Assembly: GCA_964016885.1 (NCBI GenBank)
Contig: OZ024741.1
Location: 215,078,001-215,142,000 of the forward strand
From: Eledone cirrhosa
Taxonomy: Eukaryota
Reading direction: 5' to 3'
DNA length: 64,000 bases
Shown here: in pieces, positions 37,517 to 47,937 of the stretch
Layout of the letters: the number at the start of each line of letters is the position of its first letter
Numbering within the stretch: the first letter of the stretch is position 1
Translations under genes and position numbers: made by a program
Notes under the pieces: generated by a model
Told to the model about the DNA's origin: nothing
What the model saw: the letters and a program-made list of their open reading frames with translations, nothing else
Database searches by the model: none

Positions 37517-37740
37517 CGATAGATAGATAGATACATTCATTTATATATGTATATATATATATATATATATATATATATATATATATATATATATATATAT
37601 ATATATGTAGATAAATCTACCAAGAGTTTACGGTAGTGTCCAATCCGTATGAAGAACTCAATGTATTCCGGATATCATGGAAAGAAGAGATGTAATGAAA
37701 AATCACTTTCGGTGAAAGATAAACGGTATACAGAGTCAAG

Positions 37741-40700
37741 ATAAAATATTAAACAAATAATGAATAAACAATTCCTTATATTAAACAAAAAAAGTTCATT
37801 ATTTAACGATCGTTTCTAGGATATATATGTGTTAGAATTGGTATGCATATTCAACAGATCTATGTACAAAATTATACAAAATTATACAAATTATCAAGAT
37901 TAAATATACATACCAACACATATATACGCCGTCTTCAGAAATAATGAAGTATATTTATTGATAATAACAACAATTCAAAATTTCAGGTCCGTTTGGGAAC
38001 AAAATTGACCAATGAAAACACAAAGGGTTAAATGCAGTTCGGTGTGTGTATATACATGTAAAACCCTTACACATATTTTACAAAAATGTATGTATAATTT
38101 GTATACGCATACTAAAAGGATGGATGCAAATACAAAATTTCAAGGTTAATGTCTCTGTAAGTTTATAATGCACAGATAAGATGCGTATTGACACAAGTAT
38201 GAAATTAAGTATATAAATATATATATATTTTTTTTTTTTTTTTTTTTTTCATACTCACACATATCCGTACAATCACACATACACGCGCGTATATGCATAA
38301 ATATACACATAACCACGAACATACAAACACACACACACCCCCACTCACATTTATATATGTGGATATAAAATCATAAGCACATGGATATTAATTCACTCAC
38401 ATAAAACACTGGCACACACATTTTTAGATCAAGATACAGAAATTAGGTGGGAGGGGGGGGAGAGGTCAGTATTCAACGGTCTGAGCAGACTGCCTAATAT
38501 AGATGTATCTATAAACTAAGAAAATAAAAATAAAAAATAATAAATAAACATTAAAGAGGAAAGAATAGAAAGAAAAAAGAAAAAAGAAAAAAGAAAAAAG
38601 AAATATATCAAGAAAATATATATATATATATATATATATATATATATATACACATACACATATATATATATATATATATACACACACATATATATATAAT
38701 ATACATATATATACACATAGACACACACACACATATATAAATATACACACATATACAAACACATACATACATATACACACATCCACACTAAGAACATACA
38801 TACACACACATATATAAACATATACATATACACACATACATACATACACACATATACATACAAATACACATATATATATATATATATATATATATATATA
38901 TATATATATACATATATATGTATATACACGTACATATACACACACATATACATATAATCACACATACTATATAGACACACATATATATAACCACACACAT
39001 ACATGCACATATACAACACTTACATACTAATATACATACAGATATACACATACATAGCTATATATACACACAAATATATACAGACTTACATATATACATA
39101 CAGACAAATACTTACGCATCTATATATCGGTATATACATACAAACACCACTACACTATCACACAACTTAGAAATACAAAGAGAAAGGTATATACCTATAC
39201 ACACATACATATACAAATAGAAAAACATATAGATATATATATATATATATATACACACACATATATATATACATATATATATATAACATATATATATACA
39301 TATATATACACATACATATACACATACACACACATACACATACACACACATACATACATGTACACACACATAGAAATATATACGCATACACACATACACA
39401 CATACATATAAAGTCATACACACACAAACACCTACACGAACATACACATACACATATATAAAGATATATATACACACACACACACACACAACACATACAC
39501 ACATACACATATATATAAAAAAAATAAATAATAAAGATATATACATATATATATATATATACATATATATATATATATATATATATATATATACACATAC
39601 ACATATATATACATACACATACACACACACATACATAGACATACATGTACATACATACACGTACATCGATATACATACATATATATATACACACATAGAC
39701 ATATACATACATACACACACAACTTACATACACACATATATATACATGTATATTCATACATAGAATTAGATATATAATCATACATACATATGCACTTACT
39801 TATACTCATATATACAAATACATACGCATCCATATATGCGTATATACATAAAAACACAACTACAACCTCACCTAACTCAGACATACAAATAAAAATAAAA
39901 AGGCATATGTATATACATACATACACGCATTAATAGAGACATATATATACATACATATATATATATATATATATATATATATATATATATATATATATAT
40001 ATATATATACACACATACATTCATATATATATATATATATAGATACCCACACACACATACCACCATAAATACACATACAAACACCCACATATACATATAT
40101 ATACACACGTATATATATATATATATATACACACACATAAAAAACAGACATGCACATATATATATATTTTTTTACACTTATATATACACATATTATATAC
40201 ACATACACAACCTCACATATACACATATACACATAAGTTATATTATAATAATAAAAAAAAAAATAATATATATATATATATATATATATATATATATATA
40301 TATATATATATACATACATATATATATATATATATAGATATAAACATATACATACATATATACACACATACGAATATAGACATATAATCACACATAGACA
40401 CCCATATATATATATATATATATATATATACACACACATACATATACACAGACACATATACACACTCACATATATATGTGTGTGCACACACACATATATA
40501 CACACATACACATATATACACATAAACACATATATGTGCATACATGCACACACACACACATATATCACATAGATACGAAGATAGACATATAAATAGAGAG
40601 ACATACATATATATACAACACACATACACACACATACATACACACACATATACACATACATATATATATATATATATTTCTATATATACATATATACATA

Positions 40701-43779: not shown

Positions 43780-46700
43780 TATCCAATGACAGAGAAATAA
43801 TTTTTAGTATTATAGACCTAATTAATATACATTTTAGAAATATATTTATAATTTGGTTTTAATTTTAATCAACCTAAAAATTTAATTTTAATTTGCTTAA
43901 AATTAGTATCCTTATACAGACGAATTGCAGAAAGTCATGTAATCATAGAATGGGATGTGTTTTGGATATATACCTAGTTAATATATTCTATGCAATTTTT
44001 TGAAAAGGATATGTATATGTATATGTGTATGTGTATGTGTGTGTGTATGTATATGTGTATATATGTATATATATATATATGTGTATATATATGTATATAT
44101 GTATGTGTATGTATATGTATATGTATATGTATTAATTTTGATGTCTATTTGCATATAATTATATTATGCTATTGATAAAATACAATATCTGTTTTATGTA
44201 TTATATACCTAATTAACATATACTATAGAAATAAATATATAATTTTTAATTTAGTTAACCTATAATTTATATTCTACTACCGATGTAATACTTTATTTTA
44301 TTTGTTTTTTCCCTATTACTAAATTCATTTCCTAATATTGATACCATAACGTTATTAACTTTAATTTAGTTATACTATAATTAATACTCTACTACTATTT
44401 AACTTCAAAATTCTGCTTCAAATATTATAAACCTAACTAATTTACACCTTAGAAATCAATATGTTAACTATCTTTGGTTTAGTTAACATATAATTAATGG
44501 TATACTTGTTTATTTTGAGATGCATAGATTTTGCCTTAGTTCTTGTTTATTGTATTTCCTAACACTGAAACTATGTAAAAACATACATTGGATCAAGATA
44601 CGGAAAATATTCTATGTTTCTTGAAACATATATTTACTATGATCCCCTTCTCCAAACCCCCCCTTTCCCCCATACTATTATCATCTGTATTTGTAAGCGT
44701 GTATGTATGAATATATATGTAGGTAGGTGTCTATATAGGTTTGGGTATTTATATCTGAATATAAAAATACATATATGCGCATGCAAATATGAATGTAAGA
44801 TTGTGTGTGTATATATGAGTGTGTGTATGTATGTATATATGTGTATATATGCATGTATATATGTATGTGTATGTGAATGTGTGTATGTATATGTGTATGT
44901 ATATATATGTGTGTATATATATATATATATATGTATATATGTATATATAGAAATATATATATATATATATATATATATGTATGTGTATATGTGTGTGTAT
45001 GTATGTGTGTGTATGTGTGTTGTATATATATGTATGTCTCTCTATTTATATGTCTATCTTCGTATCTATGTGATATATGTGTGTGTGTGTGCATGTATGC
45101 ACATATATGTGTTTATGTGTATATATGTGTATGTGTGTATATATGTGTGTGTGCACACACATATATATGTGAGTGTGTATATGTGTCTGTATATATGTAT
45201 GTGTGTGTATATATATATATATATATATATATATGGGTGTCTATGTGTGATTATATGTCTATATTCGTATGTGTGTATATATGTATGTATATGTTTATAT
45301 CTATATATATATATATATATGTATGTATATATATATATATATATATATATATATATATATATATATATATATATATATATATTATTTTTTTTTTTTTTAT
45401 TATTATAATATAACTTATGTGTATATGTGTATATGTGAGGTTGTGTATGTGTATATAATATGTGTATATATAAGTGTAAAAAAATATATATATATGTGCA
45501 TGTCTGTTTTTTATGTGTGTGTATATATATATATATATATACGTGTGTATATATATGTATATGTGGGTGTTTGTATGTGTATTTATGGTGGTATGTGTGT
45601 GTGGGTATCTATATATATATATATATATGAATGTATGTGTGTATATATATATATATATATATATATATATATATATATATATATATATATGTATGTATAT
45701 ATATGTCTCTATTAATGCGTGTATGTATGTATATACATATGCCTTTTTATTTTTATTTGTATGTCTGAGTTAGGTGAGGTTGTAGTTGTGTTTTTATGTA
45801 TATACGCATATATGGATGCGTATGTATTTGTATATATGAGTATAAGTAAGTGCATATGTATGTATGATTATATATCTAATTCTATGTATGAATATACATG
45901 TATATATATGTGTGTATGTAAGTTGTGTGTGTATGTATGTATATGTCTATGTGTGTATATATATATGTATGTATATCGATGTACGTGTATGTATGTACAT
46001 GTATGTCTATGTATGTGTGTGTGTATGTGTATGTATATATATGTGTATGTGTATATATATATATATATATATATATATATATGTATATATATATATATAT
46101 GTATATATCTTTATTATTTATTTTTTTTATATATATGTGTATGTGTGTATGTGTTGTGTGTGTGTGTGTGTGTATATATATCTTTATATATGTGTATGTG
46201 TATGTTCGTGTAGGTGTTTGTGTGTGTATGACTTTATATGTATGTGTGTATGTGTGTATGCGTATATATTTCTATGTGTGTGTACATGTATGTATGTGTG
46301 TGTATGTGTATGTGTGTGTATGTGTATATGTATGTGTATATATATGTATATATATATGTTATATATATATATGTATATATATATGTGTGTGTATATATAT
46401 ATATATATATATCTATATGTTTTTCTATTTGTATATGTATGTGTGTATAGGTATATACCTTTCTCTTTGTATTTCTAAGTTGTGTGATAGTGTAGTGGTG
46501 TTTGTATGTATATACCGATATATAGATGCGTAAGTATTTGTCTGTATGTATATATGTAAGTCTGTATATATTTGTGTGTATATATAGCTATGTATGTGTA
46601 TATCTGTATGTATATTAGTATGTAAGTGTTGTATATGTGCATGTATGTGTGTGGTTATATATATGTGTGTCTATATAGTATGTGTGATTATATGTATATG

Positions 46701-47937
46701 TGTGTGTATATGTACGTGTATATACATATATATGTATATATATATATATATATATATATATATATATATATATATATATATATATATATATATATATATA
46801 TGTGTATTTGTATGTATATGTGTGTATGTATGTATGTGTGTATATGTATATGTTTATATATGTGTGTGTATGTATGTTCTTAGTGTGGATGTGTGTATAT
46901 GTATGTATGTGTTTGTATATGTGTGTATATTTATATATGTGTGTGTGTGTGTCTATGTGTATATATATGTATATTATATATATATGTGTGTGTATATATA
47001 TATATATATATATGTGTATGTGTATATATATATATATATATATATATATATATTTTCTTGATATATTTCTTTTTTCTTTTTTCTTTTTTCTTTTTTCTTT
47101 TTTCTTTCTATTCTTTCCTCTTTAATGTTTATTTATTATTTTTTATTTTTATTTTCTTAGTTTATAGATACATCTATATTAGGCAGTCTGCTCAGACCGT
47201 TGAATACTGACCTCCCCCCCCCCCCTCCCACCTAATTTCTGTATCTTGATCTAAAAATGTGTGTGCCAGTGTTTTATGTGAGTGAATTAATATCCATGTG
47301 CTTATGATTTTATATCCACATATATAAATGTGAGTGGGGGTGTGTGTGTGTTTGTATGTTCGTGGTTATGTGTATATTTATGCATATACGCGCGTGTATG
47401 TGTGATTGTACGGATATGTGTGAGTATGAAAAAAAAAAAAAAAATATATATATATATATATTTATATACTTAATTTCATACTTGTGTCAATACGCATCTT
47501 ATCTGTGCATTATAAACTTACAGAGACATTAACCTTGAAATTTTGTATTTGCATCCATCCTTTTAGTATGCGTATACAAATTATACATACATTTTTGTAA
47601 AATATGTGTAAGGGTTTTACATGTATATACACACACCGAACTGCATTTAACCCTTTGTGTTTTCATTGGTCAATTTTGTTCCCAAACGGACCTGAAATTT
47701 TGAATTGTTGTTATTATCAATAAATATACTTCATTATTTCTGAAGACGGCGTATATATGTGTTGGTATGTATATTTAATCTTGATAATTTGTATAATTTT
47801 GTATAATTTTGTACATAGATCTGTTGAATATGCATACCAATTCTAACACATATATATCCTAGAAACGATCGTTAAATAATGAACTTTTTTTGTTTAATAT
47901 AAGGAATTGTTTATTCATTATTTGTTTAATATTTTAT
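43780..47937 (+). repeat. Right arm (3' UTR/pLTR), mostly a TA/TG mosaic
   Basis: Mirror of 37741-41851. Confidence 0.95.
47730..47883 (+). ncRNA. Type I HHR with ~115-nt stem II
   Basis: TTCATTATTT-CTGAAGA-[long hairpin]-GAAA-CGATCG-TT-AAATAATGAA. Confidence 0.82.

Follow-up and report, generated by a model that had tools for sequence, protein, structure and literature searches.

The closest described relatives of the element treated here are the Penelope-like elements (PLEs) of the Hydra clade, for which the marks given in the consulted part of PMC8557442 are a CxCx5C linker, a CxxC and a CxH motif flanking a conserved Glu and Asn, a hammerhead motif and, at the C-terminus, a GIY-YIG endonuclease (EN). 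Hydra elements are called generally under 3 kb in that part of the source, and the 27 Hydra families of its File S1 have total lengths of 1,080-3,045 bp, the complete ones of 2,084-2,729 bp. Naiads, as described there, have their EN at the N-terminus, bear a CCHH motif and lack a canonical hammerhead, and a head-to-head arrangement with a one-sided tail is described for PLEs and listed for Penelope-13_HM. For Litopenaeus vannamei, recent Penelope copies (>98% identical) that carried simple sequence repeats (SSRs) along, the SSRs being lengthened afterwards, are reported in the consulted passage of PMC7878876, in which carriage by transposable elements is proposed as a route to SSR expansion. 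Here, a stretch of 64,000 nt from Eledone cirrhosa OZ024741.1 (the window, to which all positions refer) was analysed, and one locus of it, 37607-47937, was read as a 5'-truncated Hydra-type PLE whose own 3' end is present a second time, inverted and head-to-head with it. The two copies were quite probably laid down in a single event, from an RNA that carried a mosaic-bearing 3' region of 4.4 kb.

The highest-scoring self-BLAST pair of the window was 37527-41851 against 43780-48123, the outer portions of which are merely (TA)n, and by global alignment the arms were limited to 37742-41851 (- strand, 4,110 nt) and 43780-47937 (+ strand, 4,158 nt), respectively (Table 1). The arms enclose an open reading frame (ORF) of 564 aa and 232 bp of single-copy untranslated region (UTR), and both ends of the element adjoin (TA)n, as seen by inspection of the sequence. 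The extent 37607-47937 had been given by an original prediction, made from the sequence alone, and was borne out by self-BLAST and the global alignments, as was its inverted pair of mirrored arms; the symmetry of the arms was found to be incomplete, the left arm extending 135 bp beyond the right one (37607-37741) and 43548-43779 being single-copy. No further match of the 135-bp tail was obtained anywhere in the window. The tail was also considered as the 5' start of the ORF, and this was rejected, no match to the N-termini of relatives being obtained by three-frame translation or by tblastn with 6 of 120 relatives. Just beyond the (TA)n at both ends lies a direct repeat of about 22-28 bp (37536-37557 and 48097-48124), a 12-mer of which has one further occurrence in the window (9369, - strand); it is a possible, not established, target-site duplication with added (TA)n, which intervenes.

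The open frame (41853-43547) begins at QFDI, which is motif A of the reverse transcriptase (RT), and reads into the GIY-YIG domain, the RT (aa 1-225) being followed in the same frame by the linker and the EN (aa 424-564). The uninterrupted RT-EN frame cut off at RT motif A was thus correctly predicted. About 255-265 N-terminal residues are missing relative to three relatives (P0002, P0003 and P0015). By a protein search 866 relatives were obtained, the 120 listed being the basis of the motif counts; the closest among the matches listed is 46% identical. The CxCx5C linker motif (aa 424-432) is present in 115 of the 120, CxxC in 119 and CxH in 117, and CxxC (C522/C525), E528, N541 and CxH (C550/H552) are invariant in all 15 rows of an alignment. 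Within the GIY-YIG core no conserved Cys pair was found in that alignment, two Cys 8 residues apart in this copy being not invariant. The N-terminal motifs RW[KR] and [AS]DK[TS] were found in 67 and 81 of the 120 relatives listed, respectively, many of which are N-truncated; the corresponding region, in which the DKA motif of Naiads would lie as well, is removed here by the truncation. Pfam gave no useful match for this ORF and a weak GIY-YIG score only for two other Hydra-type copies of the window (copies A and B), so the EN call rests on the alignment motifs. A quick RT tree was built from 113 rows, namely the search matches (10 of the 120 being left out for length) and the window copies, and in it the main copy, copies A and B, one Argonauta hians protein and four further proteins fell on one branch (SH-aLRT 99). 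With A. hians as the one named match, this grouping hints at a host resembling cephalopods.

From its sequence the element is assigned to the Hydra-type PLEs, by domain order and motifs rather than by a tree with published proteins. It had been labelled a Naiad by the original prediction, and Naiads too are inserted into (TA)n, have an inverted copy truncated at the 5' end and carry a motif that contains CxC. That label was refuted, since the EN follows the RT in one frame both here and in 114 of the 120 relatives listed (the other six lacking one motif), CxCx5C, CxxC and CxH are Hydra motifs, and a hammerhead motif lies downstream; a Naiad identity is accordingly regarded as practically untenable. 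The position of the EN Arg that is counted as catalytic in the consulted part of PMC8557442 is occupied by Lys (aa 469), which was found in none of the 120 relatives (Arg in 112, Leu in one, seven unmatched). Copy A carries the same change, so that either Lys may be tolerated in the EN or the main element and copy A may have been moved in trans.

Downstream of the ORF, a hammerhead motif was detected at 47740 (+ strand) and, mirrored, at 37938 by a descriptor scan, in agreement with the hammerhead expected in each arm by the original prediction. It consists of a 10-bp stem I, CUGAAGA at 47740, a stem II with a 115-nt hairpin insert, GAAAC at 47862, a stem III that is short and palindromic, and GUU as the cleavage triplet, and the cores of both arm copies are intact. 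The motif was missed by a descriptor requiring an immediate stem II pair and found by one permitting an insert. No such motif was produced in any of 500 UTR simulations by an order-2 Markov model, and it is the single hammerhead in the 4,390-nt UTR, even with one core mismatch permitted. Its layout agrees with the Hydra rows in the consulted part of File S2 of PMC8557442. The segment 47730-47883 is therefore given as a predicted type I hammerhead ribozyme, with putative self-cleavage.

The stop codon lies 4,193 nt before the hammerhead and 4,390 nt before the point at which the direct copy ends. For comparison, a contig collection was scanned, by which 16 loci with relatives on contigs of metagenome-assembled genomes (MAGs) and symbionts were obtained, 8 of the 16 from one assembly. 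At these loci 20 complete EN ends were found, 16 of which have a hammerhead 80-176 nt past the stop codon; the other four have none, three of them with at most 412 nt of sequence remaining. The stop-to-hammerhead distance here is 24 to 52 times that of the comparators, and the stem II region measures 115 nt against 12-31 nt in the related loci. The exceptionally long (about 4.4 kb) 3' UTR of the original prediction was thereby upheld. Within the window, the stop-to-hammerhead distance is 1,696 nt in copy A and about 670 nt in copy B, which belong to families different from that of the main element (52% and 44% RT identity, respectively); UTR lengthening is thus graded in this genome and extreme in the main copy. 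The main copy measures at least 6.1 kb and would reach about 7 kb if completed. The comparators (L001-L016), Hydra-type PLEs of which several show (TA)n and inverted copies, lie on contigs that GTDB lists under bacterial genomes. They are likely host-derived, and animal host DNA is likely present inside those bacterial assemblies.

Whether the arm belongs to the ORF was judged from decayed copies of the ORF end. The three of them in the arm, at 43802-43893, 44157-44273 and 44417-44498, scored 80, 72 and 48, values matched by 0, 0 and 3 of 500 dinucleotide shuffles, respectively, and five control regions scored 29-37; one further copy, with a score of 77, lies in the single-copy UTR 43548-43779. 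As ORF-end copies flank the boundary 43779/43780, the arm is not taken for a foreign element. On this alignment evidence 43780 is read as the point at which the inverted copy was truncated rather than as a junction with another element, and the first 0.7 kb of the arm is assigned to the ORF.

For the more distal sequence, a read-through chimera was weighed, in which a Hydra copy deprived of its own end, located upstream of host microsatellite and of the hammerhead end of another element, was retrotransposed together with both as one transcript (3' transduction), so that the mosaic would be RNA-borne cargo and not the UTR of the family. It draws on the clustering of PLE ends at (TA)n, with another hammerhead end only 160-300 bp to the right, on the cessation of the ORF-end repeats near 44500, and on the age of the mosaic, which is far older than the insertion (duplication 82% identical) and could predate the capture. 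However, no hammerhead remnant was found between the stop codon and the mosaic by a relaxed scan permitting one core mismatch, copy B, of the same subclade, has a long stem II insert of like kind, and the 0.7- and 1.7-kb UTRs of the sister families fit gradual growth; the chimera is considered unlikely.

The mosaic itself consists of TA/TG repeats between the stop codon and the hammerhead, as had been predicted; its size had been put at 3.3 kb and was reduced to about 2.4-2.6 kb by the arrays of Tandem Repeats Finder (TRF) in the right arm (44826-47053 and 44009-44132) and by run coverage. Strictly alternating runs of at least 8 nt cover 1,968 of the 4,158 nt of the arm, i.e. 47%, against 14% of the remaining window. 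The mosaic holds an internal duplication, 45757-45830 against 46467-46540 (61 of 74 positions identical, shift 710), and this 74-nt ungapped block scored 37.8, the maxima of two sets of 40 simulations being 20.5 and 26.3. As the duplication is only 82% identical, the mosaic appears to be much older than the insertion. A period of 710-730 bp was not significant by gapped alignment (234 against simulated maxima of 237-252). No kinship of the mosaic with six other repeat tracts of the window was detected (scores 20-130), a 1.2-kb mosaic at 21856-23070 was unrelated to it, and no second copy of the element was found in the window. A nested DNA transposon bounding the mosaic was also considered and was rejected, as the inverted repeat 44591-44609/47233-47251 scored 21.1 and the background reached 23.4 in 8 simulations.

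In the global alignment 4,090 columns are identical between the arms, which are set apart by 3 substitutions and 13 indels; each of these 16 differences lies in or beside simple repeats (homopolymers and dinucleotide tracts). Six indels fall in (TA)n (59 of the 81 gapped bases), five in homopolymers, one in (TG)n and one in a TTTCTTT repeat; the substitutions (44007, 44913 and 45191) are all A/G, and two of them may be shifts of TA/TG boundaries. Among about 1,785 non-repeat columns there is one difference, which adjoins an A run. The length differs between the arms in 5 of 7 TA tracts of at least 25 nt versus 2 of 10 shorter ones. The arms are collinear, and no nested insertion is present in either. 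Since the arms are this similar and the 564-aa frame is unbroken, the insertion looks young, and likely is. The original prediction was in this respect supported on three counts, namely the near-identity of the arms, their differing chiefly in (TA)n length and the youth of the insertion. Its use of the arms as an internal clock for slippage versus substitution was judged weak, because both arms were likely made in one event, so that slippage of the RT, unequal templates, slippage at a later time, gene conversion and errors of the assembly are mixed in their differences.

All 16 differences belong to the error class of long reads, which would suit an artefact of assembly or library, such as a fold-back chimera or a mis-join in low-complexity DNA. 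In a fold-back, however, a mirror image of the right flank would be expected, and the arms differ both at their outer ends and in their flanks; in addition, the 1.9-kb spacer holds the ORF in frame through 8 homopolymers of 6-8 nt. The latter suggests a fairly accurate assembly, no more, and an artefact is regarded as very improbable. The outer ends bear likewise on an inverted duplication at the DNA level after the insertion (by template switching at a stalled fork), with the microsatellites expanded in place. DNA rich in (TA)n is prone to inverted duplications at stalled forks, and many fold-back hairpins are present in the window. Against such a course, the tail that forms the outer end of the left arm is absent from the right flank and from the remaining window, both outer ends adjoin (TA)n, a tail on the inverted arm is again found in copy B, and, the ORF being intact, 2.4 kb of diverged mosaic would have had little time to arise in place; such a duplication is held to be very improbable. 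As the mosaic stands in register in the two copies and the left one cannot mirror the right flank, the RNA most likely carried the mosaic.

For the insertion of the head-to-head pair as a single event, the following course is proposed. The GIY-YIG EN would nick within (TA)n, and reverse transcription would be primed from both sides of the cut, one cDNA of about 6.1 kb reaching RT motif A and the other, of about 4.25 kb, starting 135 nt further 3'; the two truncated ends would then be joined at 41851/41852. The hammerhead would help to define the end of the RNA, the UTR would have grown by local duplication and slippage, and the full-length element would measure about 7 kb. Both in the main element and in copy B, the passage of the direct copy into (TA)n lies at a TTTAT-like word, which continues with CT in the tail, and such a merge point is compatible with priming by microhomology. 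The same anatomy is found at ordinary size in copy B and in two comparator loci (L002 and L004). The arms of copy B, 11835-12054 and 9420-9630, measure 220 bp and are 91% identical; only the inverted one has a tail, of about 165 bp.

Several points weigh against this account. The evidence comes from one locus. The lengthening is not unique to it, the two other Hydra-type copies of the window having stop-to-hammerhead distances of 0.67 and 1.70 kb, and the short-UTR comparators come from MAG contigs, half of them from one assembly, and may represent more distant Hydra lineages. The replacement of the catalytic Arg leaves the autonomy of the element not assured. By Rfam, none of the 14 matches in 47600-48400 was a ribozyme, and none was among the 150 listed of 184 matches in the whole window. 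Finally, the kinship of ORF and arm reaches only to about 44500, the mosaic and the distal 0.8 kb being tied to the ORF by contiguity and by the absence of an earlier hammerhead.

In the original prediction, much apparently anonymous mosaic of the genome would be retrotransposed cargo that seeds new (TA)n targets, a positive feedback on repeat content. By the event 33 tracts of at least 6 TA units were added (17 and 16), which would be potential new targets, and targets appear to be reused locally, the right (TA)n being common to another hammerhead-bearing end. The mosaic is strand-polarised: its sense strand has 389 TG and 20 CA, and where its TA runs have isolated interruptions, these are 11 TG to 1 CA, against 19 to 19 in the remaining window. 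Cephalopods edit RNA heavily, and, speculatively, such a polarity would result if self-complementary (UA)n RNA underwent A-to-I editing that the RT then fixed. Against editing, the old duplication differs more by T/G than by A/G, the satellite at 27251-31550 is equally polarised, so that polarity alone proves nothing, the dinucleotide counts are made non-independent by local duplication, and the UTRs of copy B and of the right neighbour lean to CA. Editing inferred from the arm differences was also considered and was rejected, three A/G substitutions being too few. A Hydra sublineage of a probably cephalopod-like host, with a 7-kb RNA whose 4.4-kb self-complementary (UA/UG)n UTR lays dozens of (TA)n targets with each jump and whose drift from TA to TG is a fixed record of editing, is very unlikely as a whole; its family-wide cargo taken alone would be close to a coin toss. 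Chances are likewise about even that the long UTR is family-wide rather than a property of one source copy.

Table 1. Features of the inverted PLE insertion and its (TA)n flanks, in window positions.
Feature	Position	Strand	Basis
Left (TA)n target tract	37550..37606		Sequence
135-bp tail, inverted copy only, no recognisable ORF start	37607..37741	-	Alignment gap, single window match, translation
Left arm: inverted, 5'-truncated copy of the 3' region	37742..41851	-	Self-BLAST, global alignments
Predicted type I hammerhead, left-arm copy, core at 37938	37795..37948	-	Descriptor scan
TA/TG mosaic core, left arm	38601..40850	-	CA 379, TG 19 counted on the + strand
5'-truncated uninterrupted ORF, assigned as Hydra-type	41853..43547	+	RT from motif A, YRDD aa 97-100, thumb, Asn/Lys-rich insert, linker, GIY-YIG EN
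Single-copy proximal 3' UTR, one decayed ORF-end copy	43548..43779	+	Repeat family D15, alignment
Right arm: portion of the direct copy's 3' region mirrored by the left arm	43780..47937	+	Self-BLAST, global alignments
Three decayed ORF-end copies (last codons, stop, following bases)	43802-43893, 44157-44273, 44417-44498	+	Alignment versus shuffles; repeat family D13
Short TA/TG tract	44009..44132	+	TRF
TA/TG microsatellite mosaic core, strand-polarised, old internal duplication	44700..47060	+	TRF, run counts, dinucleotide counts
Predicted type I hammerhead ribozyme	47730..47883	+	Descriptor scan; layout as in File S2 of PMC8557442; Rfam negative
Right (TA)n tract, common to the 3' end of another hammerhead-bearing element (- strand)	47938..48093		Sequence, TRF

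Other elements of the window were recorded as well. Copy A (1318-5128, - strand) is Hydra-type, with RT and EN frames (3099-5128) separated by one stop, a 1.7-kb AT-rich UTR and a hammerhead core at 1403, and it ends in (TA)n. Copy B (9375-12250) is a miniature of the main structure, with a 5'-truncated ORF (10236-11836, - strand), (CT)n in the UTR and a hammerhead with a 90-nt stem II insert, which is intact only in the inverted arm (11899, + strand); its ORF is broken near 10880-11000 by a short foreign repeat that is found again near 49820-49960. A non-coding 3' end of 1.2 kb, rich in T/C and with no ORF attached, occupies 48100-49320 (- strand) and bears a hammerhead-like motif at 48222; it sits between two (TA)n tracts and meets the main element end to end. 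The CA-rich minisatellite at 27215-31570 (4.3 kb) is strongly strand-polarised and might be a second repeat-filled PLE end, though no ORF adjoins it; at 31568 a CTGATGA core with a long hairpin, resembling a decayed hammerhead and followed by (TA)n, was not called by the descriptor scan.

Near-perfect fold-back hairpins beside (TA)n were found at 24796-24871, 31989-32074, 32391-32499 and 33930-34036, and further ones at 34430-34530, 50890-51024, 52831-52918 and 53022-53182; they cause spurious miRNA matches in Rfam and are likely very short head-to-head insertions. An inverted pair (608 bp, 94.7%) around a spacer in (TA)n-rich DNA, with no ORF of its own of at least 100 aa, occupies 13397-16033. 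Dispersed copies of one repeat end lie at 100-540, 23590-24500 and 33310-33800, the second being an inverted pair around a GIY-YIG-like fragment (23796-24107) of another PLE type. A GC-rich PLE of another clade (5800-6962, + strand), with an RT thumb, a CxxxxCxxC linker and a GIY-YIG domain with an internal CxxC, is presumably Neptune-like by its motifs. A broken ORF2 of a non-LTR retrotransposon (34800-37517, - strand; RVT_1, E 1.5e-13) has its frame ended at the left flank of the insertion.

Among the described systems, the Hydra clade (Hydra-1_Obim and Penelope-13_HM in the consulted part of PMC8557442) is like the main element in its single RT-EN ORF with a C-terminal GIY-YIG, in CxCx5C and CxxC/CxH, in the hammerhead near the 3' end, in its (TA)n targets and, for Penelope-13_HM, in an inverted 5'-truncated copy at the 5' end. 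The main element differs in its 135-bp tail, against 30-40 bp described there, in measuring at least 6.1 kb, against the 1,080-3,045 bp of the families given there, and, relative to the Hydra relatives of the protein search, in the change of the catalytic Arg to Lys. The Naiads of the same source share the (TA)n preference, the inverted-repeat insertions and the one-sided tail, and differ in the N-terminal EN, the CCHH motif and the lack of a canonical hammerhead. In the penaeid shrimp case no clade, UTR anatomy, hammerhead or UTR length is given in the passage of PMC7878876 consulted, whereas the cargo here was mapped between the stop codon and the hammerhead and is duplicated within one insertion. 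The non-LTR retrozymes, non-autonomous PLE ends according to the consulted part of bioRxiv 10.64898/2026.07.22.740005, likewise involve hammerhead-bearing PLE 3' ends and move alone; unlike these short tandem monomers, the end described here extends over kilobases and has an ORF joined to it. A Hydra UTR of several kilobases was not found reported in the literature searched, the coverage of which mostly leaves out subscription papers.

In a clade thought to be below 3 kb, the RT of a PLE would thus have copied more than 6 kb, including 2.4 kb of TA/TG repeat. If the UTR is family-wide, kilobases of the very repeat that it targets would be spread by a retrotransposon, and the cargo would be misread as host microsatellite with repeat libraries of short consensus sequences. 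An inverted copy set head-to-head within (TA)n is an anatomy already known from PLEs, and what is gained here is not a new mechanism but a precise anatomical case and, among the sources compared, a size record for Hydra elements.

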